Source: a virus
Virus record (IMG/VR): IMGVR_UViG_3300031952_000015
Location: 6,146-70,145 of that record
Strand: one strand, 5' to 3'
DNA: 64,000 nt
In this document: piece by piece, positions 4,927 through 31,360 of the stretch
Numbering within the stretch: position 1 is the first letter of the stretch
How the letters are laid out: every line of letters begins with the position of its first letter
Translations under genes and position numbers: made by a program
The notes under the pieces: model-generated
Database searches by the model: none
Told to the model about the DNA's origin: nothing
What the model saw: the letters and a program-made list of their open reading frames with translations, nothing else

Positions 4927-7743
4927 TCAAAATCTTCCGCTGCCTCGAGCCTGCCGTTTCATCCAAGCGATCTTCTCAGGCCAAGTGACTTGGGCGAGGG
5001 TTTTCCTCAGCTCCTCAGTGTCCCGCTTCTCGAGGATCGGAAGCTTTTGCGGTCCCGGAACCGGGACAGTCGATGAATAATCTACAGTCGAGCCGATGCC
5101 AGACCTGAATCCCTCCTTAAGCAGCGCGAGAGCGTTTGCCCAGAACAGGTCTGCGTGTCCTTCAAGCCGCTTGTGGTCAGCCTTGAAGTCATAGTTCACT
5201 GCGTTCAAGTGCTTTACCTGCAGATCATCTCCGATGAAGCTCACTGAATCGTCCTGCATCATGTGCTTCATGTTTGTCGCCATCCGGTCGATGATCGGAA
5301 GCCGCTTCCCCCCTTGGCCAGATCTGACTCTCTCCGAGAACTGGATGCCCTCGACCATCGACCCATGCCGGCGTCTGAGGTAGTCGAACAGCCCAGTGCC
5401 GACGCCAGTCATGTCAATCCGGACCTTCACGATGCTCGGGAAGTGCCTGAAGAGGCTTGAAATTAGCGCTTCTTGATCTGGAGTGGAGACGTTCTTCAAG
5501 AGGCCGATGAATCGCTGTGTCATCCGCAGCTTTCCGTCCTCTGGATCGATGGTCTTCTCGAACAATGAGACTGCGGTGAAGTCTCGGCTCCGAGCGACAT
5601 CGATCCCTATGTACATCGGATTGTCAGTCTTGAAGACGAACTCAGAATCCTTTATGATGTCCTCATAGTAATTCTTCAGCTCATTGTCGATGCACTGCAT
5701 GATAAGAGAGTATGGTAAGAAGCTAAGTGAATCATCAAGGAACGAGCAATTATGAACGATCCCGATCTCAGTCAAATAGGTACTGTCGCCATCAACATCA
5801 AGATTCCAAACATCTCCAGAATAATCTTTAAAATCTATAGTTCTTATCTTAAGAAGATCAAATTTATCAAATTGAAAGACCTTGCTATGACGAACGCCCT
5901 GATGCGCTATACCAAAGAATTTAGATAGTCTTTCGAATGATTTACCATATATCTGGATTTGATAGGGGGGATTTCGGTTGACTTTCCTTCCAAGCAACAT
6001 TGCAGTTTTCCGCTTGTCTTTTGAAACATGCACACTCGAATAGACATTGTTCATAAGAAGCACGAGATTGATCTCTTTAGCCAATCTCTCCGAGATGGTC
6101 CCATAAATATATTTTTTCTCGGTCCGACAACCATCGCCATCAAAACACCCATTCAAAAGCCACATCATCTGATCCCTTGAAAGGTCCCAAACAAATTCTG
6201 GAAGGTGTTTATTCTTAGCTCCTATACCGAACAGTATGCGAAAGACGTCATGGAGAAGCTTATTAAAACAGACCACTTCTGTCGATGTCGGCCGAGTATC
6301 ATGATTTGAAATTGATGCTCGTTTCCCAAAGTACATCTCTATCGTCGTCTGGACTTCAGAAATTAATTGGCTCTCGCTCGATGAAAACCCAAACCTCAAT
6401 TGATTGCCAACGGCAGACCCTTCAGCAATATAAAGTCCAAACAGTCTAAGAACATCTCTATTAAGCGGGATCTCATCATATATTGAATTTTTAGGTTCGT
6501 TAAGTGGCAAAGAATTTCCTTTTGTCCATTTGACCTTATGATAAATCCGATCCCCAGATCTAATGAATGTGTCTCCAAGATATGCACTCAATCTGATGCT
6601 CTTAATGCCCCTGCGGCCATTCAATCTTGGAAATAGGATATAATCTCCAGGCTTGAGTTCCCCTGCCAACCTGAACTCTGGCGAGATCTTAAGGTACTCT
6701 CTCCTTGACTTGTTATTCTTGATTGAAAGGATTGGGTGATTTTTCGTGAGAGACATCTCGTTCCCTCCCCATACCTGCATCTTAACGCATTCTTCAGATA
6801 TTTTACGAGAGAGTATTCCCTTAACGATAGAAACCCCGCCATCTCGATTCAGTATCCTATCTCCAATGGAGATATTCTTGATTTGCATTGGTTTTTCTCC
6901 GAGGACGACTGTGTCAGGATGCAAGCACATTTGTTCCTGTTTGAAGATCTCAATATCTCTCTGCCGCTTCGTCTCAAGCTTCTTGACATTGATCCACGGC
7001 GCAATCGGAATAAGATTCTGAGGTTCCAGTGGCTTAAAGATGTCGACCTTGCTCGGATCATAGACTGGGAGGTTGAACACTCGGAATCCGACTGGTTTGT
7101 TGACAAGCCTGAAGAAATTATTGTTCCTGCCGTACGGCGTCGAGCCGATGATCGTCTGCGAGAGGCTTCCGATCATCGCATCCTGGACTGCTGCCAAAAG
7201 CTCATCTGATCTATTCTGGAACGCGTACTCATCGACCAGGCAGCGCATCAAGCGAAGACTTCTGACTGAATCCGCTGCGCTTCCAGACGGATATGACGCG
7301 ATGACTGATCCGGTCTTCTTGTTCCGGAGTTCAGTCTCCTTGAACTCAAACTGATCCTTGAGATTCCCGCAAGAGTTTAAAATGAACCACTTGCAGAGCT
7401 TGACTATGTAATTCGATGCCTTCTGTCGCTGCGCGATGACTGGGATAGTCTGGTTGTCGAAGATGCTCGCGGTCGTGATGATGTCGACACATGATGATGA
7501 CGTGAACGACACTCCCCTTGCTTTGATGTAAAGGATGTCCTTCGCATCAACCCCCTTGATGTTGAGCGACTCCAAGTGGAATTGCGCTTGGTACTTTGTC
7601 GGGACGTACGGGATCGGCTGGCCAGTCTCACTTCGCATCCTGAATGTGTTCGTAAGAAGCAGAAGGTACTCTTGCTGCTGAGCAGTCAACTCGATAGTCG
7701 GATCATACCAGCTCGGCAAGTACTTGATCTCAGGGAGCTCCAT
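4927..7743 (-). CDS. terL: Terminase large subunit with intein
   Basis: Walker A-like KARGVSFT, Walker B CLVDEYAF, coupling motif GSTPYGRNN, nuclease motifs YIGIDVARSRDFT, IDMTGVG and HADLFWANALAL. Confidence 0.92.
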   Translation of the reverse strand: MELPEIKYLPSWYDPTIELTAQQQEYLLLLTNTFRMRSETGQPIPYVPTKYQAQFHLESLNIKGVDAKDILYIKARGVSFTSSSCVDIITTASIFDNQTIPVIAQRQKASNYIVKLCKWFILNSCGNLKDQFEFKETELRNKKTGSVIASYPSGSAADSVRSLRLMRCLVDEYAFQNRSDELLAAVQDAMIGSLSQTIIGSTPYGRNNNFFRLVNKPVGFRVFNLPVYDPSKVDIFKPLEPQNLIPIAPWINVKKLETKRQRDIEIFKQEQMCLHPDTVVLGEKPMQIKNISIGDRILNRDGGVSIVKGILSRKISEECVKMQVWGGNEMSLTKNHPILSIKNNKSRREYLKISPEFRLAGELKPGDYILFPRLNGRRGIKSIRLSAYLGDTFIRSGDRIYHKVKWTKGNSLPLNEPKNSIYDEIPLNRDVLRLFGLYIAEGSAVGNQLRFGFSSSESQLISEVQTTIEMYFGKRASISNHDTRPTSTEVVCFNKLLHDVFRILFGIGAKNKHLPEFVWDLSRDQMMWLLNGCFDGDGCRTEKKYIYGTISERLAKEINLVLLMNNVYSSVHVSKDKRKTAMLLGRKVNRNPPYQIQIYGKSFERLSKFFGIAHQGVRHSKVFQFDKFDLLKIRTIDFKDYSGDVWNLDVDGDSTYLTEIGIVHNCSFLDDSLSFLPYSLIMQCIDNELKNYYEDIIKDSEFVFKTDNPMYIGIDVARSRDFTAVSLFEKTIDPEDGKLRMTQRFIGLLKNVSTPDQEALISSLFRHFPSIVKVRIDMTGVGTGLFDYLRRRHGSMVEGIQFSERVRSGQGGKRLPIIDRMATNMKHMMQDDSVSFIGDDLQVKHLNAVNYDFKADHKRLEGHADLFWANALALLKEGFRSGIGSTVDYSSTVPVPGPQKLPILEKRDTEELRKTLAQVTWPEKIAWMKRQARGSGRF
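5749..6927 (-). mobile_element. Intein (393 aa) with LAGLIDADG homing endonuclease
   Basis: Starts CLHPDTVV; block B LTKNHPI; LAGLIDADG-like LFGLYIAEG and LNGCFDGDG; ends VWNLDVDGDSTYLTEIGIVHN followed by Cys +1; visibly more AT-rich than the flanks. Confidence 0.93.
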
Positions 7744-12219: not shown

Positions 12220-14451
12220 TTAAATGCTTTGCTCCTTTTTCCGTGACTTAGGAGCTTTCTTGATGTCCAATGTCTCCCACGGGTAGTCCTGGAAGACAGA
12301 CCTCAGGATGCGCTCAGATGGCGGCCAGATGATGTGCGACCAATAATGGTCTTGATCGTATCCTGACGTGTAGCTCTCAGAGTAGATCGGCATCTTTCCC
12401 TTCGGGCCCTTGATGTAGATGTGCGAGATCTTCTGGCCGACCATGACCTCAGCGCCGCACTCGATCATCTGCTTCGCGACCAGCACATGCGGGATCGCGG
12501 TCTTGTACTCGATGATTGGCTTCGTCAGCTCCTTGTAGAGGAGGACATCGTCCTTCGTCAACTGACCAATCTGAACCAACGTCCGCTGAGCTGAGAGGTA
12601 TTCGAAGATCTCTAGCGAGGACTTGCCATTGAAGATCATGTCGATCACTGTCCGCTGCATCCTTAAAGCAAAGGCCGACTGGTCAGTCCTCACGAGCTCG
12701 ATCCCCTTGCAGAAGAATCTCGGTTCGATCTTCTTACCCTCATCCCAAGTCTGGACTCCAGCGTAGCGCTTCTTCGTGCCCTTCTCCTTATCGCCGACGA
12801 AGATCATCTGCTTGACTACCTTCTCGAACTTCATCTCAATCTTTCGGTCCTCTGGCGCGATGTTGAAGTTCCCAAGCAACGTCAAGTAAAAATCATTAAG
12901 CTCCTGCGTGAGCTTCTGTCCCAATGCAATCTGCTCGTCCAAGTTGTCCTTGTTGATCTTCACGAACAGGGAATCAGTGTCGATGTAGATAACTTGATAG
13001 CCCTTCTCCTCAAGGAAATTCTTGCTGATCTTGATGAGCCATCTCCCTGCCCGGGTGACTGAGCCAGCGATGTCGATGTGGTAGTATCTTGAGACTGGGT
13101 TGCCCATGACGCCGTAAAAACTGAGCAGGATGACCTTCGGCACCTTCTCCAAGATGTCATACAAGACCCACTCTGGCGTCCCCTTATCGAACGCATTGCG
13201 CTTCCGCAAGTAATAATTCCGCTCATCCTCAAGTCCAGTAAGAATTTGAGGGATGACTCCCTTGATGTCCTTCGCAAACCAAGCTGAATCATCTTCTGGG
13301 ACGTAGATCTTCTCCTTGCCAGCTCGCAGCGTTTCTGGTGAGATATTCCAACTTTGCATGATGCGATTGTAGAGCGACTTGAAGTCCAATATCAAGATAC
13401 CTCGATGCAATCCGGCCGGCGGCTCCTGCACATATCCTCCAACGAACGAGGTGCGCGTCGCCTTTGACTTCGGCCGGTACGGGAACCTTAACCCGAGCTT
13501 CAGCTCTCTCACCTTCCTAAGAATCATGTTGTCGATGATGATGGTCGGGAATCTTACCTCCTCAAGAAGACAATTCGTCTTTGAGCTCAACGAGTCTAAG
13601 ATCTGAGTGATCTGGAACTTCTCATCTATTTTCTTCATGAGCTTGCAATCCATGACATTGTACTCCATCAGCTTCTGCTTGTCCTCAAGGTAGGTCTCGA
13701 TCACCTTCTTGCCCAGCTTGATCTTCGTTTCTCCGAGCTCTGCGAGCGCGACATCATTCAGCGCGTACGACCGCATCCGCTTCATTTTGATGAACCTAGC
13801 CATGATGTCAAACTTCTGGAAGTATCTCCAGTTCAACTCTATCCCAAGCCAATTGCATCGCTCCTCCAAGTATGGGAAGTCAAACCCGTCGCCGTACCAC
13901 GCGACCAAGACATCGTAATCCTTCACAGCATTGTAGAAATCGCGGATAAGCCTCCGCTCGCAGTCTCGGTCCTTGTGGTTCTCGTTGATGAAGAACTTTA
14001 CCTTATCATTCTGATCGACGCACGCGATGCTCAAGATCGGATACCGACCAACATGAATCTCTGAGATCGTGTCATCTGTCTCGATGTCGATGTAGAGGAT
14101 CTTGAGTTTGTCAGTCCCTACCGGGGTGAGTGTGTCAATCAAGTACCGTCTCCAATATGGGATGTCTGACTCATAGGTCTTGACTCCAGCAACCTCAAGC
14201 GCGTCTCGGATCTTGTAGACCATGCCAGCTCTCTTGAGATACAGCTTAGCATACTTCCCCGTATACTCGACATCTGAGATCTCGCGAATCCGGGTGTACC
14301 GTTCGACTGCAGGATGCCCGCGATCGCCAGCTCCGATGATGATGTAATGCCTGAACACGGGGTAGTCGATCACCTGCTCGAACTTGTTGTCGCCATCCCG
14401 GTAAAGCAAAGTTATGGCATTGAACTTCGTCCAAGCAGAAACAATCCTCAA
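12220..14451 (-). CDS. polB: Family B DNA polymerase with 3'-5' exonuclease
   Basis: ExoI YIDIET, ExoII WYGDGFDFPYL, ExoIII YNVMD, motif A DFKSLYN, motif B KVILLSFYG, motif C YIDTDS, KKRYAG, KGIELVR. Confidence 0.96.
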   Translation of the reverse strand: MRIVSAWTKFNAITLLYRDGDNKFEQVIDYPVFRHYIIIGAGDRGHPAVERYTRIREISDVEYTGKYAKLYLKRAGMVYKIRDALEVAGVKTYESDIPYWRRYLIDTLTPVGTDKLKILYIDIETDDTISEIHVGRYPILSIACVDQNDKVKFFINENHKDRDCERRLIRDFYNAVKDYDVLVAWYGDGFDFPYLEERCNWLGIELNWRYFQKFDIMARFIKMKRMRSYALNDVALAELGETKIKLGKKVIETYLEDKQKLMEYNVMDCKLMKKIDEKFQITQILDSLSSKTNCLLEEVRFPTIIIDNMILRKVRELKLGLRFPYRPKSKATRTSFVGGYVQEPPAGLHRGILILDFKSLYNRIMQSWNISPETLRAGKEKIYVPEDDSAWFAKDIKGVIPQILTGLEDERNYYLRKRNAFDKGTPEWVLYDILEKVPKVILLSFYGVMGNPVSRYYHIDIAGSVTRAGRWLIKISKNFLEEKGYQVIYIDTDSLFVKINKDNLDEQIALGQKLTQELNDFYLTLLGNFNIAPEDRKIEMKFEKVVKQMIFVGDKEKGTKKRYAGVQTWDEGKKIEPRFFCKGIELVRTDQSAFALRMQRTVIDMIFNGKSSLEIFEYLSAQRTLVQIGQLTKDDVLLYKELTKPIIEYKTAIPHVLVAKQMIECGAEVMVGQKISHIYIKGPKGKMPIYSESYTSGYDQDHYWSHIIWPPSERILRSVFQDYPWETLDIKKAPKSRKKEQSI

Positions 14452-17267: not shown

Positions 17268-17957
17268 TCACCCCCTTGCTTTCTGCTTCCGCAGTTGTGC
17301 CTTGATAAGTGAGATGAGCTTCTTCTCGGTGGCTGCTGCGTAGGCTGCGTAGTAGGCTGCGGAGGCTGCGTAGTAGGCTGCGTTGGCTGCGTAGGCTGCT
17401 GCGTAGGCTGCGTAGGCTGCTGCGTAGGCTGCTGCGGAGGCTGCTGCGTAGGCTGCGTAGTAGGCTGCTGCGGAGGCTGCTACGTCGGCTGCTGCGTAGG
17501 CTGCGTAGTAGGCTGCGGAGGCTGCTATGCGATTTTCTTCGCTCGGCTCTTTCAGCCATGCCTCTGCCGCTTCTATCGCCTGTCGCGGTCTTTTGTCCTG
17601 CGGATATTTCGTCTCGAAATTCTTAAGGCATTTCTTCGCTGCCCAAATCGCGAACTTCACCGATACCTCTTTGAGGTTCTCGACCTCTTGCACGATGCGC
17701 ATCTCCTCTGAACAGAACTTGTCGTCCTTCTCGTGCAGCACCTTGCCCCGTGCCTCAACGATAAACAGCCGAGGGCCATACACGTAAGACTGGAATGCCT
17801 TAAGCGGCGATTCGCAGGCATGGAAGCCCGCATTGCACATCTCCAGTTTGCCCTCGTGCTTCTTCCACGCGCCGAGCTTCCACTTCTCGATAGTGCCGTT
17901 CTTGCTTGTCATGTCCTCCTTGAGGAACTTATAGCCTTTGATTGTCTTTGCTCTCAT
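17268..17957 (-). CDS. Phage protein with CxxGFHAC domain, Imm5-like helical part and Ala/Tyr repeats
   Basis: GYKF...LEMCNAGFHACESP; DKRPRQAIEAAEAWL; AAYYAAYAAA tract. Confidence 0.7.
   Translation of the reverse strand: MRAKTIKGYKFLKEDMTSKNGTIEKWKLGAWKKHEGKLEMCNAGFHACESPLKAFQSYVYGPRLFIVEARGKVLHEKDDKFCSEEMRIVQEVENLKEVSVKFAIWAAKKCLKNFETKYPQDKRPRQAIEAAEAWLKEPSEENRIAASAAYYAAYAAADVAASAAAYYAAYAAASAAAYAAAYAAYAAAYAANAAYYAASAAYYAAYAAATEKKLISLIKAQLRKQKARG
17330..17527. repeat. Low-complexity coding repeat built from GCTGCGTAG-type units
   Basis: Tandem ggctgcgta / ggctgctgcg units encoding the A/Y/S tract. Confidence 0.9.
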
Positions 17958-19042: not shown

Positions 19043-19410
19043 CCGTACTCGAATGGAGGGAGATCGTCATCCTCGTCCCAGATCTTAGCTCCGCTTGGGT
19101 AGATGACCCCGCTGTGATAGATCCCAGCATGACCAGCATCATCGTGGATCTGGACGTGCTTTGTCTTAGGATTCCAAGCGATTGAGACGCTCCCGACCCA
19201 ATCATCTGGATACCGATGGTAGTTGACTGCGGTCGCGACTTGCCCGATCAAGCTGTAGAGATTACCGATAGTTGGAGCATCCGCAGTGCAGCTCTCTTGG
19301 AAGAATTCTAAAAGATCTTCATACTCGATGTAGTCCTCCAATCCAGATGGAATCCGCTTGAAGATCCCGGTATCAGAATCCATGATCTCAAGTTGTGGTT
19401 TGTCGCTCAT
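19030..19410 (-). CDS. Hypothetical acidic protein
   Basis: 126-aa ORF coupled to the TS-like gene. Confidence 0.55.
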   Translation of the reverse strand: MSDKPQLEIMDSDTGIFKRIPSGLEDYIEYEDLLEFFQESCTADAPTIGNLYSLIGQVATAVNYHRYPDDWVGSVSIAWNPKTKHVQIHDDAGHAGIYHSGVIYPSGAKIWDEDDDLPPFEYGCPS

Positions 19411-20093
19411 TTGTTCTCCTCCAATAGCTTGTCCATCTTATCCCAATGCTTCTCGTAGATGTGGAGGCTGCCGCAGTGGTGGAAGTACTTTCCGACTCCC
19501 ACGTTGAGCTCTGAGGCCATCCGCTTCTGCATCTGAGTGAAGCAATAGATGTCATTCCGAGTCCCGTAGTAGATGTCTTGCGACCGCATGTAGGTGTGCC
19601 AGTCGAGATTCCCGTCGCGCAAGAAGACGTGGAGGTACATTGTGCAGGGGAGATCCTTCGTCGGCTTCTCCTTATCATACGCTGAGTTGATGTTGATGAC
19701 GCACTGCCGAGAATCTGGATCCTCCCTGAGCTTCTTGACCACCCAATCCCACTGGTTGATTCCGATCTTAGGGTCCTTACCGAAGATCCGATAGCCATAG
19801 GCCGAATTCACAGTGATGCCGTCGTCTGAGAACTTCTCCCACGTCCGCTTGATAGTATCTGAGAAGTCGATCCGATTCGAGCCAGAGTAGTACCACTTGA
19901 GCTCCTCCTCAGCGTACTCAACGTTCGTCTCGAACCCCGGCAGAGTCACCTCATTGTAGCACGGATTAATCTCAAAGGTGAATCCAAAGACCTCTCTGAC
20001 ACTCATCCTGCGCGGAGCGGTGACGAGTCCCGCATCTCTCAACGTCCTGAGAGCTCTCAAGTACTCATGATTCACTGTCTCCACCAGATCCAT
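19407..20093 (-). CDS. Thymidylate synthase family protein, probably dCMP hydroxymethylase or methylase
   Basis: NSAYGYRI, DPDSRQ, catalytic PCT, MRSQDIYYGTRND, GSLHIYEKH; Asp rather than Asn at the base-specificity position. Confidence 0.8.
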   Translation of the reverse strand: MDLVETVNHEYLRALRTLRDAGLVTAPRRMSVREVFGFTFEINPCYNEVTLPGFETNVEYAEEELKWYYSGSNRIDFSDTIKRTWEKFSDDGITVNSAYGYRIFGKDPKIGINQWDWVVKKLREDPDSRQCVININSAYDKEKPTKDLPCTMYLHVFLRDGNLDWHTYMRSQDIYYGTRNDIYCFTQMQKRMASELNVGVGKYFHHCGSLHIYEKHWDKMDKLLEENK

Positions 20094-20415
20094 CGTTCTC
20101 TCCGAGCTTTACTTGAATCTCATCGAACTCCTCCTTGAACTGAGTCTTGATCTGCAGTATATAAATCAAGACTTCATTCAGGTCGTCATCCAATGTCTCA
20201 TTGTATCGCCGCTCTGATAAGACCGCAGACATCTCGGCTGGAGTCTTTGCTGAGAGGAATCTCACGATATACTCTGAAATTTCAACCAACCTCAGCGCGA
20301 TGCTCAGGCTCCCGTGCTTCTCAAGTTCGCAAAATCTAGTCCGATTCTGATCATAGTACGCGAGCGCGTCGCACATGGCCTCGTTGGCATTCCGTTTAAT
20401 CTCATCTTGTCCCAT
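20065..20415 (-). CDS. Hypothetical protein
   Basis: 116-aa ORF with GGAGGAG RBS. Confidence 0.55.
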   Translation of the reverse strand: MGQDEIKRNANEAMCDALAYYDQNRTRFCELEKHGSLSIALRLVEISEYIVRFLSAKTPAEMSAVLSERRYNETLDDDLNEVLIYILQIKTQFKEEFDEIQVKLGENDGSGGDSES

Positions 20416-20463
20416 CTCGTCTCCTCCATCAACTACTGCCTACTGCGGTAATGTATTGAAAGC

Positions 20464-20739
20464 CTAACTTTGTAAAACCGACGGATATGCGTCATTGTAC
20501 CGTGGATCTCGCTTGAGAGCAGACGCATCCGGACGAGGATACATCTCGATGAGCGGAGTGCTCTCCATCTCCTTGATCTTCTTGTCGATTGCGGCGATCT
20601 GCCGAAGCAACCCATCCTTGTCGGTGAGGTGCCGTTCCATGTCAATGACGTAGAGAAGCTTCCGCAATTTCTCTACGTTCTCTGCCGCTATCTTTGTCAA
20701 TTCCTTGTTGTCTTCCATGTCTTGTCCCTCCGGGCTCAA
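20464..20739 (-). CDS. Hypothetical protein
   Basis: 91-aa helical ORF. Confidence 0.5.
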   Translation of the reverse strand: MSPEGQDMEDNKELTKIAAENVEKLRKLLYVIDMERHLTDKDGLLRQIAAIDKKIKEMESTPLIEMYPRPDASALKRDPRYNDAYPSVLQS

Positions 20740-21146
20740 TAGCCCTCATCTTGTCTCTTGTGGTTGATCCCATTTTTCACACAATAAAGCCGGTAGAGTT
20801 CGTCTGCATCCATGTCGACTGCAATGCACCGGTTCATGAAGAAGTGGAATTCATCGACCAGTTCCATCTTAGCTCGCTCAATATTCCGCTCCGTTAAGAT
20901 CTGAGAGACCTTCCAAGGCTTCCATGGGAATTCTCTCAAGTACTCCATAATCTCGTCGATGTTCGCAAGCGTCATCACTCGGATAAATTGGATCCGAGCT
21001 TCATTAGATTTAAATGGGATCGTCTTCAGCCGAAGTTGGAGCTTCTTCTGAAGTTCAAACATCTCTCCGAGCCGATCAAGGACTGGCATTCTCACAGAAC
21101 TTCCCTCATCTCTTGTCTCGTCTTGTCCCATCTGGATCCCCCTCAT
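20736..21146 (-). CDS. All-alpha dNTP pyrophosphatase (T4 gp56-like dCTPase/dUTPase)
   Basis: DEIME...WKPWK...ELVDEFHFFMN...Y..KN..N..RQDEGY. Confidence 0.85.
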   Translation of the reverse strand: MRGIQMGQDETRDEGSSVRMPVLDRLGEMFELQKKLQLRLKTIPFKSNEARIQFIRVMTLANIDEIMEYLREFPWKPWKVSQILTERNIERAKMELVDEFHFFMNRCIAVDMDADELYRLYCVKNGINHKRQDEGY

Positions 21147-21354
21147 CTATGCGTATGAATTCTGACTCGTTTATTAAGTTTTCTATGGCGCATTTTTCCC
21201 TTGCTCAGATTCAACTATTGGTTCCATCGGCTTCTCTGGCTCCCTGAGATTTAAGAGCAGCTCATTGATCTGATCCTTTGTACTCTTGCTTGCCGTCATC
21301 TGAAAGAGCAGATCTAGTGCTCGGATGATGAGCTTCATGTCAGGATCGGCGAAC

Positions 21355-22074
21355 TCAATTAGCTTTGACATCTTGCGCCTCCGTTGCCGGCAGTCCAGAC
21401 TCGCCTGGCTTCGTCCGCTCGCACTCCTCAAAGTACGGACACTTGATGTTCTCCTTCTTCTGATGGCAATGCCAGTCGTTCGGGAATCCCTCCAGTCTCT
21501 CCGGGCTCTTCTTCGTCAACACTGCTGTGTAGATCCGCTTGAAGCCCTCGATCGTCTCATCGTAGATCTTTTCGCTAAACTTGATGGCGTGCTCCACGAT
21601 CTTGAAGGATGCCTTCTCAATGTAAGTTACTTGGCCGTGGCTCCGGTTCAATGCCTTCATGTAGAGCATCAGCTGCCGGACATGGCCGTCATCCGGCTTC
21701 TCCTCGCTGAATGAAAGCCAGGCAGTAGACTTCAGCTCGTCTAGCTCTGACATCTCGACATGGTCTGCATGGCCGACGATGACAAGTCCCTCCTGCTCAA
21801 TCTTCAGCGTCGGCTCATTGGCGATCCCCTCTCCCTTAGGCAAGACATGCTCTTGGAAGAAGTCGTGGATGATGTCTCCGACCAGCATCTTCTTTCGGGT
21901 CACTATGTCGAAGTCTCGCCTGCCGAGGATCTTCTCAAAGTAGACTTTTCGCATGCAACCTCCAGCTTGGCTTGCGTAGAAGACATTGTCAGCCGGTGGA
22001 GTCGGGTGCTCGCGCTCCTTCATCGCCTTGAACTGTTCCAGATATGCGTTCAAATAGTTTTCAACTCGTCCCAT
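21355..22074 (-). CDS. Cas4-like PD-(D/E)XK exonuclease with Fe-S cysteines
   Basis: ASQAGGCMRK, GDIIH, GHAD, ELKS, QLMLY, C-terminal C...CPYFEEC. Confidence 0.8.
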   Translation of the reverse strand: MGRVENYLNAYLEQFKAMKEREHPTPPADNVFYASQAGGCMRKVYFEKILGRRDFDIVTRKKMLVGDIIHDFFQEHVLPKGEGIANEPTLKIEQEGLVIVGHADHVEMSELDELKSTAWLSFSEEKPDDGHVRQLMLYMKALNRSHGQVTYIEKASFKIVEHAIKFSEKIYDETIEGFKRIYTAVLTKKSPERLEGFPNDWHCHQKKENIKCPYFEECERTKPGESGLPATEAQDVKAN

Positions 22075-22299
22075 CTTGATCCTCCATCCCCATCGCCATC
22101 CTCCTGTGGTATTTCTGCTGCTCTTCGCTCGACTCGTGCTCATCCTCGAGTATCATCTCTTGCTCGTCATTCATTTCATTCCCTCCGGTCCCTCGGTATC
22201 CATTTCTTCCCGTCAAAGACGAGTGATTCGTTATTGGGGACAAACGATTCAAAGATGTCTCCCTTCTGCATTCCCTTCAGTTTCCGCGGCCGACTCATC

Positions 22300-22548
22300 T
22301 CAATTCCTCCTTCCATGCTGTTTTTGGAAGTCTTCAAACTTCTGCGGTTTAAGTTTGTACAAGTCATCTCCGAATTTGTTGAATGGACCAGTTGGCGTAT
22401 GGAGAAAAACTCTGCCTTGCTCCCAGTTAATAATGAACTCACAGAGAATGTCATTAACTGCTTCCGTCTTGGTCATCTTGTGTTCGACAGCCCAGTGTCT
22501 AACGAATTTGTCTGTGTTATCTGTCAGGTCAAGTTGTATCAATGTCAT
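22300..22548 (-). CDS. Ribbon-helix-helix-like protein
   Basis: IQLDLTDNTDKFVRHWAVEHKMTKTEAVNDIL. Confidence 0.5.
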   Translation of the reverse strand: MTLIQLDLTDNTDKFVRHWAVEHKMTKTEAVNDILCEFIINWEQGRVFLHTPTGPFNKFGDDLYKLKPQKFEDFQKQHGRRN

Positions 22549-22832
22549 TTCAAGTCCTCCTCCGTCAGATTGAATGTCCCCACTACCCAGTTATATGCTC
22601 CGGCAAGTTGCTCCATCCCCAACGCACCACGATTTCCTATCCTCACAAGATTGTTGAACTCGTGCTTGTCCATCGCTTCTTTCAATCGTCTTGCGTGACG
22701 AATCGCCTCGGCTCTGAGGTCTGCTTTTCTAATCCATAGATTCTTATCAAAAGTAGCACCGTCACTCACTTGCCATACCATCTCCTTGAGAGATTTTAAT
22801 TCCTTCAGCGTCTTCAGTGGTTCGTCTGCCAT
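22545..22832 (-). CDS. MADEPLKTLKE-family small protein
   Basis: Paralogue of 23232-23660, sharing EPLKTLKE, DLRAEAI and FNLTExDLK. Confidence 0.65.
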   Translation of the reverse strand: MADEPLKTLKELKSLKEMVWQVSDGATFDKNLWIRKADLRAEAIRHARRLKEAMDKHEFNNLVRIGNRGALGMEQLAGAYNWVVGTFNLTEEDLK

Positions 22833-23035
22833 TATAGACCTAACTCCGCTTTCACCTGGCGTATTTCTTTCCGTAGTTGTTCTATTGCTTCTCTCTTAGG
22901 ATAAGGAATTGGAAATGCATTTTCTGGCATCCATCTTGCGCCTACCATATTGTGAAGACGTTTCTCCAATAATGTTAAAACTTCAATGTTATACTTTCTT
23001 GATTTCGCTGGAAAACTTAGTGGTTCGTCTGCCAT
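22832..23035 (-). CDS. MADEPL-family small protein
   Basis: Starts MADEPLS with the same DNA leader as its neighbours. Confidence 0.55.
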   Translation of the reverse strand: MADEPLSFPAKSRKYNIEVLTLLEKRLHNMVGARWMPENAFPIPYPKREAIEQLRKEIRQVKAELGL

Positions 23036-23231
23036 CTCAGTCACCATACCACTCGTCATACTCGTCTTTAGACTTGGTGTATTTCCGGTTCTCGCGGTTG
23101 GCTTCTTTGCCTTCCTGTTTCCTGCTTTCGTCCGTGTATGTCATCGCCTCAGTCATCCCCTCGCCTTGTCTCGTCTCTTGAGTTCTGCCGCAGCCACAAC
23201 AAACCGCTTTCTCAGATTCTTCATCCATCTT

Positions 23232-23660
23232 TCAAGTCCTCCTCCACACGCTCTCTTTATCTTTCCAATGTGTTGCTCCACAATCAAGACACTCTTCCAT
23301 CCCAGGAAATGAATAAACGCAAGTTCCAACATCTATTTTTCGCTTATGCTGGCAGGTTTCAAATGAGTCTTTGAGGTCCTTCTCTGTCAGATTGAAGAAT
23401 CTTTTAAGAAGCCAATTCATATACTCCTCAGCAAGTCGTTGTGGCCCCCACGATTCACTATCCATAGCGGCATCAAGAACATCTATGCCTTCGTTGTTCT
23501 CCATCTCATACGCAAACTTCTCAAAGAGATGGTGATTCTTGTTCTTTCCTAAAAGTTGAATCGCCTCGGCTCTGAGGTCAAAAACATACGCAAATTGTTG
23601 TAGCCCATCCTTAGTTGAGACTATCATCTCCTTCAGCGTCTTCAGTGGTTCGCCGGCCAT
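23232..23660 (-). CDS. MAGEPLKTLKE-family protein with Cys-rich extension
   Basis: Paralogue of 22545-22832 plus a CQH...CLDCG tail. Confidence 0.6.
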   Translation of the reverse strand: MAGEPLKTLKEMIVSTKDGLQQFAYVFDLRAEAIQLLGKNKNHHLFEKFAYEMENNEGIDVLDAAMDSESWGPQRLAEEYMNWLLKRFFNLTEKDLKDSFETCQHKRKIDVGTCVYSFPGMEECLDCGATHWKDKESVWRRT

Positions 23661-23810
23661 CATTCCCTCATGATGCTGTCCTGAAGCACTGAACTTGAGA
23701 CAGTGCTTGTTCGGTACAGCTTGACGCAATTCCCCTTGTGGAACCATCTTTCTCGGAATCTCACGGCGCTACTATCCATCGGACTGACTTGCTCTCCGCA
23801 ACCGGGGCAC

Positions 23811-24770
23811 TTAGACATCTTTGATCCCTCCACGGGTGATGATGAATGGTGCCTCGCCGTCCGGGAGGTGCGGAGCGTCGACCAGCTTCGCGACCTTAGT
23901 CCCCCTGGACCCCTTCCGCAAGTAGATGCGGTACATCGCATTGTGGCCGACGATATGGCCGCCAACTGCTCGAGTCGGATCGCCGAACAATTGGCCTGGA
24001 TTCACCATGACTTGGTTTGTGACATAGACGATGACGTTGTAGATGTCGGCGAGCCGTGTGAGGTGCTGGAGATGTTTGTTGAGCTTCTGTTGCCTCTCAG
24101 CGAGCGTCCCTCGCCCGAGGTACTCCCCCCTGAACGCGGCAGTAAGACTGTCGACGACGATGAGCTTCACAGGGAGCTTGTCGTCGGTGATCAGCCTCTC
24201 TGCCTTCTCAGCTAAGAGCATCTGATGGTCGGTCGAGTAGGATCGCGCATATTTTATGTTCTTCAAGACCAACTCTCCATCGATGCCGGCAGCCTCCGCG
24301 ATCTCCCGGATCCGCTGCGGCCTGAAGGACCCCTCGCTGTCAATCCAAATGCACACGCCGCTGTGGGGCTCTTTTTGGACGTTCACTGCGAGCTGATGGG
24401 CGATCTGCGTCTTGCCAGAGCTGAACTCGCCATAGCACTCAGTGATGCTCCCAGACTCGAACCCGCCGTCGATGAGCGCGTCGAGCTTCTCGCTCCCGAT
24501 CTTGACATGGAAGATCTTCTTCCGATATTCTTCCTGCTCGAACCCAGTCTTGAAGTCTAATCCGCAGAGCTCTCGCGCCGCGTTGATCAGCTTCATGGTG
24601 GAGAGCTTGTTCATCTCAGTGAGATCCATCACGTCGGCCACTGAGGCAGTCGCGATCTTCATCAAGGTGGAGTAGCCGGCGTTGATCAGCTTCTCCGCAG
24701 TCGCTGGTCCGACTCCAGGCAGGTCGGTGATCTCAGAAACAGTCTCCTCAGTCTCGGGCTTCTTCTTCAT
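23811..24770 (-). CDS. radA: Archaeal DNA recombinase RadA
   Basis: HhH DLPGVGPATAEKL, Walker A GEFSSGKTQ, IDSEGSFRPQRI, VVDSL, GRGTLAERQQKL, TNQV, GGHIVGH, KLVDAPHLP. Confidence 0.96.
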   Translation of the reverse strand: MKKKPETEETVSEITDLPGVGPATAEKLINAGYSTLMKIATASVADVMDLTEMNKLSTMKLINAARELCGLDFKTGFEQEEYRKKIFHVKIGSEKLDALIDGGFESGSITECYGEFSSGKTQIAHQLAVNVQKEPHSGVCIWIDSEGSFRPQRIREIAEAAGIDGELVLKNIKYARSYSTDHQMLLAEKAERLITDDKLPVKLIVVDSLTAAFRGEYLGRGTLAERQQKLNKHLQHLTRLADIYNVIVYVTNQVMVNPGQLFGDPTRAVGGHIVGHNAMYRIYLRKGSRGTKVAKLVDAPHLPDGEAPFIITRGGIKDV

Positions 24771-24957
24771 CTTGATCCTCGTCCAGCTTCATCTTCTCGA
24801 TGTTGCTCAGGTTGATCGCTTGGACTCCGCTCCGAGCGAGCTCGATCTTCGCGAACTGCCCGCCGTCGATCCCAAGGAACACTCCGTGGAGCGCCTTGAT
24901 CGCATCGCCGTCCTTGATGACCATCTTGACCCGCTTGTTCAGGAACTCTTCAAACAT
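24748..24957 (-). CDS. Sm/LSm-like small beta-barrel protein
   Basis: FLNKRVKMVIKDG...LHGVFLGID...INLSNIEKM. Confidence 0.45.
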   Translation of the reverse strand: MFEEFLNKRVKMVIKDGDAIKALHGVFLGIDGGQFAKIELARSGVQAINLSNIEKMKLDEDQDEEEARD

Positions 24958-25020
24958 GTGCTACCCTCCGAGAATTTGACTCATCTCGCCTCGCCTGCAG
25001 TGATGAATTCATTGCCATTT

Positions 25021-25470
25021 TTAATCTTTGCCCTCCTGACGCCACATTTTGAACTTCTCAAGACTCTGGTCATATCGCTTGCCCTTCCCGTACTTCTCAT
25101 CATCTGAAAGAGCATCCCATTCTTGATGACACTTCGAAGAACAAAAATACGAATATGTTGTGCCTCTAAAGTATCGAATAAGCCCGGGCGTTCCGCAGTT
25201 CGGGCAGTAAGAGACATATTCTCCAACTCCACACTCTTCATCATCAGGCAATTGTCCTCCTGTCAAATCCCACAACGGAAGCTTTGAACTGACAGAGTTA
25301 AACTTTGCACATTGGGCGGTTATCCCGAACTTATCATAGAACCATTGACGGATCGGCTTCCCCTCCATCGACATCGAACTTGAGAGATGAAACGCATACC
25401 TGCTCGTTTCCTTAAGTGCATCGCAATATTGGTCAATCACTTTCTGCACTGCCATCTGTGTATAGTTCAT
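25021..25470 (-). CDS. Zinc-finger (CxxC...FCSxxC) protein
   Basis: CPNCG...YFCSSKC. Confidence 0.55.
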   Translation of the reverse strand: MNYTQMAVQKVIDQYCDALKETSRYAFHLSSSMSMEGKPIRQWFYDKFGITAQCAKFNSVSSKLPLWDLTGGQLPDDEECGVGEYVSYCPNCGTPGLIRYFRGTTYSYFCSSKCHQEWDALSDDEKYGKGKRYDQSLEKFKMWRQEGKD

Positions 25471-25471
25471 T

Positions 25472-25813
25472 TCACTTCGCCTCCTGGATGATCTTCTTCA
25501 TCTCCCTAATCTTATTTGCCTTATCTTCGATCTTCTGCCGGATCTGGTCGATCTCAGCATTGTGCTCGCCGATCTCCTTCTTCAAGATCGCCATCTTGAA
25601 GGAGACGTGAGACTTGGACTTAGAATCTTTGGTGATGTCAAGGTCGCGGTCGAGCGAGATCAGCTTGTTGAGATATTGGTTGAGCGTGATGCGGTCAGCT
25701 CTCGTCTTCTGCTTCATCGTCCTTAGATCAATGAACCCAAGCTCGCCCAGGAATTTTTCATTGTCCTTGTGGACTATGAAGTGGCCCAAAAATCTCACTC
25801 GTCTCTTCTTCAT
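25472..25813 (-). CDS. Hypothetical protein with coiled-coil C-terminus
   Basis: 113-aa basic ORF next to the palindrome cluster. Confidence 0.55.
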   Translation of the reverse strand: MKKRRVRFLGHFIVHKDNEKFLGELGFIDLRTMKQKTRADRITLNQYLNKLISLDRDLDITKDSKSKSHVSFKMAILKKEIGEHNAEIDQIRQKIEDKANKIREMKKIIQEAK

Positions 25814-25847
25814 TCTCTTCCTCGTCTTTCATTACTGAAGAGTTAAG

Positions 25848-26093
25848 GGTGCCACCTGAGGGTGCCACCCGATCTTTTAGGTGCCACCTGACAGGTGGCA
25901 CCTGACTCTTCTTCTTAACTGGCTTCTTATCTTTTCTCATCTTTTGATCACCAAAGACCTATAAACCTGAGGTCCACCAATACGTTGAGACAGTCCTTTT
26001 ATAAACTGTTTCTGGTCCAGGATTTTTTAGTCAAACTTTTTGAAAGCACCTCATCTTCTGGAATTGCAGGTGCCACCTGACAGGTGGCACCTG
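25848..26093. repeat. GGTGCCACC iterons and two perfect palindromes (candidate origin or operator)
   Basis: AGGTGCCACCTG-A-CAGGTGGCACCT at 25879-25903 and within 26067-26093; half sites at 25848 and 25861; T/A-rich spacer. Confidence 0.8.
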
Positions 26094-26145
26094 TTTTTTA
26101 TATCATGAGTTCTCATCGGAAACACCTTTAGACTTCTTGTCGTTT

Positions 26146-27597
26146 TTAATCATTGCTCTCATTCTTCATCCCTAGATAAAATTTCTCCTCCTTGAGCTGG
26201 CAGACCCAGATGCAGTTCCTAGACTGCTTCGGGAACAGCGGCGCGAAGATGACTGAGACCAGATTGCAGTCATAGTACTCGCTGAGCTCATCGAAGAGTT
26301 GTCTCTGAGCAGGAGTCATCAGCTTCTCATAGTCCTTCTGGGATGCGAACGTGCCGTAGACCTTCTTGATCTTGAAGTACTTCGACAGCAGCATCTCCAT
26401 CTCAGCGTACGTCAGCTCGCCGACCTCTCCCTCGATCATGTGGTTGTCTGCGGCGCCGACCTTCGCGTCATAGCATGGCGTCGAGATCATCAGGACAGTA
26501 TTCTGGTTCATGTGTGATTGGATGTTCATCATGAACTGGTTATGGTTCTTCTTCCCGATGTGCTCGAGGACCTCGAAGCAGGTGATGAAGTCCCAACTAT
26601 TCCCATACTTCCCAGCGGGCGCCGCGATGTCTCCAGCCATCGTCGGATCGCACAGGTCTTCAACCTCAAATCTTACCCACTTGGTGACGAGATTCGCATA
26701 CTTCTCCTTGAGCGATTCGATCGTCTTATCTCGGATGTCGATCCCGAGATAGCTCTTAATGCAGCGGCGGTTGTGGTACAGCGTCGCCAGATTGCCACCA
26801 TCACCACAGCCCCAGTCCAAGAGAGTCTTCTCATGGAAGTTCGGCGTGATGAGCTTCAATAGATAGCTCCACCGGAGGTAGTGGGCGAAGATGTCGCGGT
26901 GGAACACATGGTTCTCGAACGAGACCTCAGGGTAGAGTTGGGTTCGGTTATACTTAGTTTTCCTCTTGACTGGACTCTCTGCAGGCTTCGGCGCATTATG
27001 CTCCTCAGCATCGATCTCCTGGTGCATTGCCTTGTCCTTCTCATAGTGCTCGAACATTTCTGCCACATTAACCTCCTCCACCGGCTTTGAGTACCCAGCT
27101 TCCCACTCCATGATGTAGTCGTAGATCATCTCTGGAGTCATGTCGTCAACGAACACAAGCAGCTTGCGCTTGATGTTCGACGCTGCGAACTCTCGCCCGA
27201 ATCGTATCAAGATCTCCGGGATCTGCTCTGGCTTGATGAACTTCCCGTCGAACCTTGACAGCACAAGCTCAGGCGATGCAGTCAAGACAATCAAGATTGT
27301 ATTCTCATTGAGCGTTCTCTCTAATTCTCGCATGTAGTCTGGATAGTAGTTTCTGAAGATCGGCCCATAAATGCACTCGCCGAGAAGAAATCTGTCATAG
27401 ATGATGTCGCAGCCCGCATTGAGATCCTTGATTCCTCGGATGTACTCTTGCCGAGCATACTCCTTCTGATCGCTTTGCGAGAGGTTGATCGGCGGGTTCT
27501 TGCAGTGGCGGACATCAAATGTCCCATGCTTGAGGAACTCGTTGATCAATGTAGTCTTTCCAGTACAGTCACATCCACAAATTAAATAATTTGTCAT
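26146..27597 (-). CDS. dNMP kinase fused to class I SAM-dependent methyltransferase
   Basis: N-terminal P-loop GCDCTGKTT and DRFLLGECIYG; C-terminal LLDWGCGDG, LGIDI and CFEVLEH. Confidence 0.85.
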   Translation of the reverse strand: MTNYLICGCDCTGKTTLINEFLKHGTFDVRHCKNPPINLSQSDQKEYARQEYIRGIKDLNAGCDIIYDRFLLGECIYGPIFRNYYPDYMRELERTLNENTILIVLTASPELVLSRFDGKFIKPEQIPEILIRFGREFAASNIKRKLLVFVDDMTPEMIYDYIMEWEAGYSKPVEEVNVAEMFEHYEKDKAMHQEIDAEEHNAPKPAESPVKRKTKYNRTQLYPEVSFENHVFHRDIFAHYLRWSYLLKLITPNFHEKTLLDWGCGDGGNLATLYHNRRCIKSYLGIDIRDKTIESLKEKYANLVTKWVRFEVEDLCDPTMAGDIAAPAGKYGNSWDFITCFEVLEHIGKKNHNQFMMNIQSHMNQNTVLMISTPCYDAKVGAADNHMIEGEVGELTYAEMEMLLSKYFKIKKVYGTFASQKDYEKLMTPAQRQLFDELSEYYDCNLVSVIFAPLFPKQSRNCIWVCQLKEEKFYLGMKNESND

Positions 27598-27650
27598 TTA
27601 CGTTCCCTCCGTAATTTTTTAATAGATCGCGGCATATCCATAGTCTTCAT

Positions 27651-28364
27651 CTACTTTGACATCGCCTCCTTGCGAATCTTCTCGACATGAGCTTCGACTC
27701 CCTTATTAAACCTTATCACATAGCTCGGGTGCTGGACTGTGACGACCTCAGGCATTGGGTGCTTTAAGTCTGAGAAGGCTTTCTCGGCATGCTTCAGGGC
27801 TCCCTGGACCCCCTTAGATGCGACGCTGCCGAGGCATATAATCTTCTTAGGCTTGAGGTTCTTGATGGCCGCAGTGAGATCCTGGATGCCCTCCTCAATG
27901 ACCTCCTTGAGATCTTTCATCTGAGCTCCTGGGCAGTATGTGTTGAAGACATTCGTCAAGTAGATGTTGTGCAGTCCCTTGATAGCCTTCTCGATCAGAT
28001 CTCCGGTCCGGTTGCCGTGGAAGACCTCAAGATTCTGGTCCTTCTTCCGCTGGCGTCCTGGGCACATGCCGACAATCATCGTGCAATTATTCGTCCGATC
28101 GACGTCTCTCGGCGAGTACTTGATCCGCTTGCTCGTGTCAGGGATCCTCGCCATCGGCTCGACTGCATTGATTGGTTTCTCGACCTTGACCTCATCCTTC
28201 TTCAGCTTCAGTCCTTTCCCACCGCACTTCGGGCACTCGAGATCTCTTTCGAGCCCATAGCATTTCTTCTCATAGTTGCACACAGTGCAGCTCCAAATAT
28301 CATAGCATCCGCTGCGGTCTTCTATTGTCATTAAATTCTTCTTCTCCCATACCACGTCGTTCAC
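27651..28364 (-). CDS. Uracil-DNA glycosylase superfamily protein (family 4/5-like) with N-terminal zinc ribbon
   Basis: MIVGMCPG, FHGNRTG, YLTNV, PKKIICLGSVA, HPSY; CTVC...CPKC. Confidence 0.75.
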   Translation of the reverse strand: MNDVVWEKKNLMTIEDRSGCYDIWSCTVCNYEKKCYGLERDLECPKCGGKGLKLKKDEVKVEKPINAVEPMARIPDTSKRIKYSPRDVDRTNNCTMIVGMCPGRQRKKDQNLEVFHGNRTGDLIEKAIKGLHNIYLTNVFNTYCPGAQMKDLKEVIEEGIQDLTAAIKNLKPKKIICLGSVASKGVQGALKHAEKAFSDLKHPMPEVVTVQHPSYVIRFNKGVEAHVEKIRKEAMSK

Positions 28365-31343: not shown

Positions 31344-31360
31344 TATTTATAAATCTTTCC
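31344..31360 (-). promoter_or_regulatory. Archaeal BRE-TATA promoter GGAAAGATTTATAAATA
   Basis: Same motif as 15934 and 32164; upstream of the DUF932-like gene. Confidence 0.7.

Follow-up and report, generated by a model that had tools for sequence, protein, structure and literature searches.

Does an uncultured contractile-tailed virus replace the cytosine of its DNA in the manner of phage T4? The question is raised by positions 19407–28364 of a 64-kb stretch of DNA (hereafter the window), which comprises bases 6146–70145 of the 70,145-bp IMG/VR virus record IMGVR_UViG_3300031952_000015, a record with direct terminal repeats. Almost all open reading frames (ORFs) of the window are on the minus strand, and matches to PHROG families include tail sheath, baseplate wedge, tape measure, a family B DNA polymerase (PolB) and a large terminase that probably bears an intein. 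Positions 19407–28364 belong to a part of the genome given over to replication and nucleotide metabolism. An initial annotation had named four genes there, encoding a thymidylate synthase (TS) homologue, a gp56-like pyrophosphatase, a nucleotide kinase and a uracil-DNA glycosylase (UDG)-like protein, and all four are present on the minus strand. Our analysis makes it likely that the virus encodes a T4-type pre-replicative pathway that replaces cytosine with 5-hydroxymethylcytosine (hmC). The main addition made here is a methyltransferase linked to this gene set, which was absent from the pathway first proposed.

The central enzyme is a TS-fold protein of 228 amino acids (aa) (19407–20093, minus strand), a predicted C5-hydroxymethylase of deoxycytidine monophosphate (dCMP) and the only TS homologue in the whole record. 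It matched PF00303 (Thymidylat_synt) at 2e-26 and four PHROG thymidylate-synthase families, and it fell below all NCBIfam thymidylate-synthase cut-offs (best 79.8 bits versus 327). Sequence comparison with the PDB placed MilA, a CMP 5-hydroxymethylase, first (2.2e-35), ahead of the best true TS (8.2e-18) and T4 dCMP hydroxymethylase (gp42, 4.5e-16); most true TSs matched the protein less well than these two hydroxymethylases did.

The stretch MRSQDIYYGTRND corresponds to residues 169–181 of the protein. In both pairwise and MAFFT alignments its D181, the Asp of RND, aligned with the Asp of T4 gp42 (GFRND), with that of MilA and with Asn177 of E. coli ThyA (GLPFN), bearing out the specificity-position Asp on which the initial annotation had been built. 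The hydroxymethylase of SP-10, which acts on deoxyuridine monophosphate (dUMP), has Asn (GVFTN) opposite D181. Asp occupied the 177 column in all 68 metagenomic homologues that reach it (the 69th, P0064, is truncated), and D181, Cys150, D173 and other signature residues were invariant in a 22-sequence family alignment with a mean column identity of 52%. The Asp at this position is thus not a chance substitution.

In E. coli ThyA numbering, the protein carries R21, E58, R126, Asp at 143, C146, R166, S167, D169, Asp at 177, H207 and Y209. Its Cys150 aligned with the catalytic C146 of E. coli, D173 (in the motif RSQD) with Asp169, and S171 and R129 with the deoxyribose-associated Ser167 and Arg126. 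Position 143 is acidic, as in T4 (D-F-M-C) and MilA, through D147, which precedes the Cys by three residues; a HMMER pairwise alignment to one TS shifts this position by one residue, and MAFFT and the published numbering convention both give Asp. T4 gp42 was identical to the window protein at R126, D143, C146, S167, D169 and D177. The combination D-C-S-D-D was common to 213 of 219 aligned sequences, namely nine references and 210 database proteins, 150 of which are the best cluster representatives at 50% identity. The exceptions were E. coli ThyA, the SP-10 enzyme (Asn177), two proteins with Ala167, one truncated protein and the homologue of a related contig, L016 (L016:1330-1989), which has Tyr at the Asp169 position.

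Residue rules supported by in vivo assays were published in 2026 (PMC13326640). According to that study, replacement of Asn177 by Asp goes with dCMP as substrate, and a bulky Leu143 keeps water out of the active site, with Asp or Glu found there in hydroxymethylases and Asp in MilA. The initial annotation had allowed either 5-hydroxymethyl- or 5-methyl-dCTP; because Asp replaces Leu143 in the window protein, the hydroxymethyl product is favoured and the methyl product less so. The hydroxymethylase of SPO1 and SP-10 belongs to the same radiation and has Asp at 143, and differs by Asn177, consistent with its use of dUMP. Separately, three annotated phage proteins (L032:9295-10104, L008:3838-4500 and L007:2983-4029) carry Asp at both 143 and 177 under other names: AXL3 gp28 and phage G gp319 are labelled thymidylate synthase, and an Agathobaculum phage protein is labelled deoxyuridylate hydroxymethyltransferase. 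Judged by these residues, all three are probably dCMP rather than dUMP enzymes.

A dCMP-using enzyme could instead complete a reductive methylation, as reported for Xanthomonas phage Xp12, leaving 5-methylcytosine in the DNA. The Asp at the Asn177 position fits any TS homologue that uses dCMP, and the Leu143 rule is correlative, residue 143 being said in the same study only to "appear to correlate" with the product (PMC13326640), which weighs against the hydroxymethyl assignment. On the other side, position 143 is Asp, as in T4 gp42, MilA and the SP-10 enzyme, where E. coli ThyA has a bulky hydrophobic residue. The homologue also stops about 40 profile positions before the TS C-terminus (profile 2–224 of 266). 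We regard a dCMP methyltransferase as unlikely.

In a quickly searched maximum-likelihood tree with 63 rows (25 of the 69 homologues, every fifth of P0071–P0211 and nine references, with one outgroup), the window protein fell in a clade of 22 metagenomic rows (starred in the tree; SH-aLRT 96). T4 gp42, on a long branch, fell elsewhere in the same hydroxymethylase radiation; the tree speaks to clade membership, neither to origin nor to direction. A scan of IMG/VR with the TS alignment returned 22 pattern matches, with no relative among them, and the TS query matched only 2,355 of 50,697 phage records.

The second component is an all-alpha nucleoside triphosphate (NTP) pyrophosphatase of 136 aa (20736–21146, minus strand), a predicted dCTPase that is possibly a dUTPase. 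A TATA-like box (21170–21177, minus strand, found by motif scan) lies 31 nt upstream of its start codon. BLASTP gave 30% identity to T4 gp56 over 159 columns (55 bits, E 3e-15), almost the full length, and the alignment takes in the C-terminal KN..N..RQD.GY stretch. The protein also matched PF08761 (dUTPase_2) at 8.6e-13 and the NTP pyrophosphohydrolase family phrog_173 at 3.1e-17. Matches to solved dimeric dUTPases were weaker (25 bits; 1w2y at 1.5e-4), and the label "gp56-like" is correct because the gp56 match is the stronger one.

The kinase forms the N-terminal third of a 483-aa protein (26146–27597, minus strand), whose start codon also has a TATA-like box by motif scan, 26 nt upstream (27616–27623, minus strand). 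The domain, residues 1 to about 170 (27088–27597), matched phrog_761, "thymidylate kinase", at 2.4e-9; its motifs are the P-loop GCDCTGKT and DRF. Bacillus phage G gp315 shares 31% identity with it at the N-terminus (E 3e-13), and the only PDB match of the domain was YorR, at a weak E of 0.37. A kinase of deoxynucleoside monophosphates (dNMPs) was thus rightly expected here, as a Tmk-like domain fused to a methyltransferase and not as a gp1 relative. Although it lies outside the gp1 family, this domain may do the job of gp1, with phosphorylation of 5-hydroxymethyl-dCMP to the diphosphate as its predicted reaction.

The C-terminal part of the same protein (METHYLTRANSFERASE; residues about 215 to 470, 26149–26955) is a methyltransferase domain of the class I S-adenosylmethionine (SAM) type (PF13489, 1.6e-15). 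It has 348 database homologues; those listed, 120 in number, align with this domain alone and are for the most part 265–300 aa in length. The nearest Atlas clusters are 87–100% viral, which marks the family as virus-only. AlphaFold2 modelled most of residues 230–470 with a per-residue confidence (pLDDT) above 90, and the nearest solved folds found with Foldseek were small-molecule N-, O- and C-methyltransferases, not DNA methyltransferases. We also considered an RNA 2'-O-methyltransferase paired with a polynucleotide kinase, as in Hen1/Pnkp. This was rejected because the Hen1 matches are weak (4e-5; 19 bits versus a cut-off of 340), the kinase is Tmk-like and the genes in synteny encode nucleotide enzymes.

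At least 463 IMG/VR contigs encode a relative of this methyltransferase, and linkage was counted in the best 80 of the 463. A TS homologue lay within 6 kb of the methyltransferase in 76 of the 80 contigs, always on the same strand and with a median gap of 437 bp. The signature R-D-C-S-D-D was present in 76 of the 80 TS ORFs found there; the other four resemble ordinary ThyA. Iterated searches of the same 80 loci found the pyrophosphatase in 32, a dCMP deaminase in 31, the kinase in 20 and the UDG-like gene in none. Five of these loci have distinct genes for the kinase and the methyltransferase, side by side and arranged kinase, methyltransferase, TS; the fusion in the window therefore joins two neighbours.

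Other fusions draw on the same genes: the methyltransferase with a trimeric dUTPase in P0213, the kinase with the pyrophosphatase in L036, and the kinase with a UDG-like domain in Bacillus phage G gp315 (L007:462-1457), annotated as a thymidylate kinase. The C-terminal domain of gp315 resembles the UDG-fold protein of the window (E 2.6e-6). In phage G, gp315 lies four genes from gp319, a TS homologue of the type with Asp at both 143 and 177 (Asp/Asp type). The fused ORF of L036 (L036:7141-8199, 353 aa) matches both the kinase and the NTP-pyrophosphatase seeds and adjoins a methyltransferase, with no TS homologue within 6 kb. The synteny with Asp/Asp-type TS genes and the gene fusions are good grounds for assigning the methyltransferase to the same nucleotide pathway, and it is the most consistent partner of the Asp/Asp-type TS enzyme.

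The methyltransferase domain matched only five of the 50,697 phage records. The three examined, Stenotrophomonas phage AXL3 and two spring-water phage genomes, each hold a block of methyltransferase, NTP pyrophosphatase, Tmk, TS and dCMP deaminase; the thymidylate kinase is without annotation in one of them, and all three TS homologues carry Asp143 and Asp177. In AXL3 the block is gp27–gp31, and its methyltransferase is homologous to that of the window (30% identity, E 8e-27). Pseudoxanthomonas phage PW916 also matched; its gene set is similar without the kinase, and the chemistry is not stated in the part of its report available to us (PMC9414467). According to the AXL3 report, the DNA of that phage was cut by only two of 37 restriction enzymes, TasI and Tru1I, both with A/T-only sites, and the authors concluded that G or C is modified, the identity of the modification being unknown; the phage also has ThyX (PMC7504290). 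AXL3 and PW916 differ from the window virus in being bacterial siphoviruses in which the kinase and methyltransferase genes are separate, in having a dCMP deaminase and ThyX and no UDG-like gene, and in a pyrophosphatase that is not detectably similar to that of the window.

We tentatively suggest that the methyltransferase methylates 5-hydroxymethyl-dCMP, or hmC once in DNA, to give a methylated hmC derivative in the genome, a proposal that we hold to be possible rather than probable. Examples would be 5-methoxymethylcytosine or an N-methylated hmC, neither of which is a described DNA base, and a search of the open-access literature returned nothing relevant on the methyltransferase cassette or on a methoxymethyl base.

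These components would act in the following order. The gp56-like pyrophosphatase would hydrolyze dCTP, perhaps also dUTP, to the monophosphate, emptying the dCTP pool and feeding the TS-fold enzyme. The latter would add the methylene group of 5,10-methylene-tetrahydrofolate to C5 of dCMP, and water, not hydride, would resolve the intermediate to give 5-hydroxymethyl-dCMP. The Tmk-like domain would raise this to the diphosphate and a host nucleoside-diphosphate kinase to the triphosphate, which the viral PolB would incorporate. PolB, the presumed user of the modified nucleotide, is encoded outside the region at 12220–14451 (minus strand; phrog_262, 2.3e-79) and also matched NCBIfam DNA polymerase II families below cut-off. 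The likeliest substrate of the SAM methyltransferase is this same nucleotide, or the base after its incorporation into DNA, because this virus-only family is nearly always encoded beside an Asp/Asp-type TS. The viral DNA may thus end up with hmC itself or with a methylated form of hmC. The sequence of dCTP removal, C5 modification of dCMP and incorporation by PolB, as first proposed, is upheld at the level of sequence by the gp42/MilA signature and the gp56 similarity.

The pathway shares with the T4 hmC pathway (gp56, gp42, gp1 and glucosyltransferases) the gp42 residues, the gp56 similarity, a nucleotide kinase and a PolB of its own. It differs from T4 in the clade of its TS homologue, in a kinase that is unrelated to gp1 and fused to a SAM methyltransferase, and in its probably archaeal host; nothing Alc-like or Den-nuclease-like was annotated in the window.

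Several points weigh against a T4-type pathway. Among the 57 distinct window proteins scanned with Pfam, no glycosyltransferase, dCMP deaminase or ThyX was found; the scan took in all but nine of the minus-strand ORFs of at least 200 aa, the nine having been compared with PHROGs only or, for the head polyprotein, with no library, and small ORFs were left unscanned. The preference of the pyrophosphatase for dCTP or dUTP is unreadable from its sequence, and the Pfam and NCBIfam names are dUTPase. The kinase domain showed no similarity to T4 gp1 by BLASTP (best E 0.66), and its AlphaFold2 model is of low confidence. Within the window, the TS gene lies about 6 kb from the kinase–methyltransferase gene and is not adjacent to it. 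The 80 contigs used for the linkage counts are not independent, being the best of 463 with many from one metagenome; dereplication at 90% identity left 38 clusters, 37 of them with the TS link, and at 70% it left 11, 10 of them with the link. Additionally, CTAG occurs at 0.26 of expectation (20 versus 76), CATG at 0.66 and GGCC at 0.74, other four-base palindromes ranging from 0.78 to 1.46. Such under-representation is not required under blanket cytosine modification, and CTAG depletion is common anyway. The pathway as a whole rests on homology, residue signatures, gene fusions and synteny, from which we infer all the enzyme activities and the composition of the virion DNA.

The persisting depletion of CTAG, CATG and GGCC would suit a modified cytosine nucleotide that is not meant for wholesale replacement but is incorporated partially or under regulation, or that ends in a small molecule, as it does in mildiomycin and bacimethrin synthesis, where a hydroxymethylase, an N-glycosidase and a methyltransferase act. 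Among solved structures the best match is MilA, which shares Asp at 143 and 177 with the window protein, and the nearest solved folds of the methyltransferase are small-molecule enzymes. A hydroxymethylase with a glycosylase-fold protein, a methyltransferase and a kinase also superficially resembles the logic of bacimethrin synthesis. Yet the UDG fold is unlike the MilB/BcmB glycosidase family, the genes stand among PolB, RadA and nuclease genes in a virus, and a gp56-like NTP pyrophosphatase makes sense only for control of the deoxynucleotide pool. MilA has an extra C-terminal domain (325–342 aa versus 228 aa) and uses Ala176 and Lys133 for ribose, whereas Ser and Arg stand at these positions in the window protein; according to the MilA report, deoxyribose is associated with Ser167 and Arg126, and Ala and Lys occur in MilA and BcmA (PMC5175136). 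A purpose other than replacement of cytosine appears improbable.

Flavin-dependent 5-hydroxy-dCMP synthases of the RB69 gp48 and DLP3 gp80 kind, which would place 5-hydroxycytosine derivatives in the DNA, share with the window protein the TS fold, Asp177, an acidic residue at 143 and a dNMP kinase partner, and at least one of them, RL38JI gp216, likewise has MilA as its best PDB match (PMC13326640). The distinguishing residue is 169: replacement of Asp by Asn marks these flavin-binding enzymes, and all those tested have Asn (PMC13326640), whereas Asp (RSQD) is retained in the window protein and throughout its family of 22. The scanned window proteins also lack a glycosyltransferase. A 5-hydroxy product is disfavoured on these residues, and we consider such an enzyme very unlikely.

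That the genes are an ordinary thymidylate synthase, dUTPase, dTMP kinase and uracil glycosylase, serving nucleotide supply and uracil exclusion with no base modification, agrees with their database names and with how the AXL3 authors read their own cassette (PMC7504290), but it is hardly credible, as the uracil-selecting residue is Asp in 68 of 68 homologues, the score is far under every NCBIfam TS cut-off, AXL3 has ThyX as well and restriction-resistant DNA, and the methyltransferase link is left unexplained.

The remaining member of the hmC gene set first proposed, the UDG-like gene (27651–28364, minus strand), encodes a 237-aa protein with an N-terminal zinc ribbon and a UDG-superfamily domain (PF03167, 8e-11). 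No sequence match to a solved UDG was found, and the family 4 model TIGR00758 scored 34.7 bits, below its cut-off of 125.3. An alignment of 11 sequences, nine database homologues and two from related loci, showed GMCPG, HGNRTGD, LTN.FN and HPSY..RFNK to be conserved, with only one conserved Cys (C101). Family 4 UDGs have a GE(A/G)PG motif A and an iron-sulfur cluster held by four Cys. The window protein has the UDG fold and the HPS of motif B (HPSY is invariant), and has GMCPG in place of motif A and lacks the four Cys; on these features it is not a standard family 4 member. Its AlphaFold2 model (pLDDT 77.5) retrieved the family 4 UDG 4zby, 1ui1 and UdgX in Foldseek at E of about 1e-6, with TM scores of 0.42–0.55, and also SMUG1. 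Homologues lie near the TS homologue in two related contigs, L016 (in the adjacent block) and L010. The gene is thus present as annotated, with an atypical motif A, and its company with TS is confined to the clade of the window, of which it is an accessory. The Foldseek search with this model (m95748e148a6a) also returned 9qhs_A, a 1122-residue family-A DNA polymerase of phage phiLo described "with modified template", and a UDG-like domain in a phage polymerase may bear on the role of the fold in modified-DNA viruses.

The host of the virus is likely, though not proven, to be archaeal, as first annotated. The RadA recombinase (23811–24770, minus strand), a context and host marker outside the pathway, scored 418.6 bits against NF003301 (cut-off 259) and 410.2 bits against TIGR02236 (cut-off 361.15), both archaeal RadA equivalogs, and its best viral matches, at about 34% identity, are in haloarchaeal tailed viruses. 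A Hjc-like resolvase is also present (7.5e-6). TATA-like boxes are biased to the coding strand (28 versus 9), several with AAAG in front, and 16 of 27 coding-strand hits lie 15–75 nt upstream of predicted starts, a zone that makes up 8.3% of positions. The motif AAAGATT(T)A(T/A)A(A/T)A, resembling an archaeal B-recognition element (BRE) plus TATA box, recurs 25–70 nt before start codons, for example at 31353, 32174, 25025, 14504 and 4918. In one relative (L030:322-3804), the TS homologue directly follows genes for a TATA-binding protein (205 bits) and an MCM protein with an archaeal winged helix. The metagenome-assembled genome of that contig is labelled Alphaproteobacteria, and the contig is probably archaeal or from an archaeal virus and in the wrong bin. 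Many window genes have GGAGG or GGTGA before their start. A search for tRNA genes found none, and the major capsid protein had no tblastn match among the 50,697 phage records.

One expectation of the initial annotation, that several PD-(D/E)XK nucleases degrade unmodified host DNA, found no support: the nucleases are a Cas4/RecB-like exonuclease and the Hjc-like resolvase, beside RadA, and together the three are a usual recombination set.

Read from genes and residues, the novelty is thus a probable hmC-type pathway that belongs to a new lineage and probably to a new domain of hosts; its kinase is of a different kind, and its methyltransferase partner is conserved. Among the papers listed by searches of the open-access literature, none gives a sequence-level account of such a dCMP hydroxymethylase pathway for a tailed virus of archaea. 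Replacing cytosine before replication is a well-established way for phages to counter host defences. If the pathway operates as proposed, DNA of the hmC type confronts the restriction and CRISPR systems of archaea and can be copied by archaeal PolB enzymes. The methyltransferase is the larger prize, a virus-only family on at least 463 IMG/VR contigs, almost always beside an Asp/Asp-type TS, with a homologous cassette in the cultured phage AXL3. If its proposed role holds, the module would span archaeal and bacterial viruses; new DNA bases and their enzymes are useful for sequencing and epigenetics.

Relatives of the TS clade carry varied gene sets. In L016 the C-terminal methyltransferase part, cut by the contig end, is 50% identical to that of the window, and the contig also encodes a UDG-like protein, a dCMP deaminase, TS and a PD-(D/E)XK nuclease. 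After the TS gene (L016:3773-11003) follow PolB, a serine hydroxymethyltransferase, two glycosyltransferases, a sugar epimerase/dehydratase and a GHMP kinase. Apparently the contig represents a glycosylated version of the pathway, in which the C5 chemistry may differ. L010 encodes PolB, Tmk-like and UDG-like proteins, a TS homologue, GMP reductase and an unrelated methyltransferase; the latter (194 aa) was tried as a member of the family, aligned poorly and was excluded from the counts. PolB lies beside the TS homologue in L016, L010 and L018, and a gp56-like gene follows the TS homologue in L019.

Between the pyrophosphatase and TS genes of the window lie ORFs of 116 aa (20065–20415, minus strand) and 91 aa, for which no Pfam, PHROG or NCBIfam match was found, nor a PDB match for the former. 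The 116-aa ORF is helical and possibly DUF1599/DUF3310-like; a sub-threshold Atlas lead points to DUF1599 clusters (feature score 0.85, structure TM 0.62), DUF1599 being a "nucleotide modification associated domain". Elsewhere, the large terminase (4927–7743) has PHROG terminase matches at residues 40–276 and 663–880 with an RNR-like match between them, which suggests that the insert is an intein. An 888-aa ORF upstream of the window (cf. L034:3268-5934) ends in a Hint domain and adjoins an HNH endonuclease gene. Finally, the protein encoded at 17268–17957 combines DUF7666 and an Imm5-like immunity domain with a long Ala/Tyr-rich repeat at its end.

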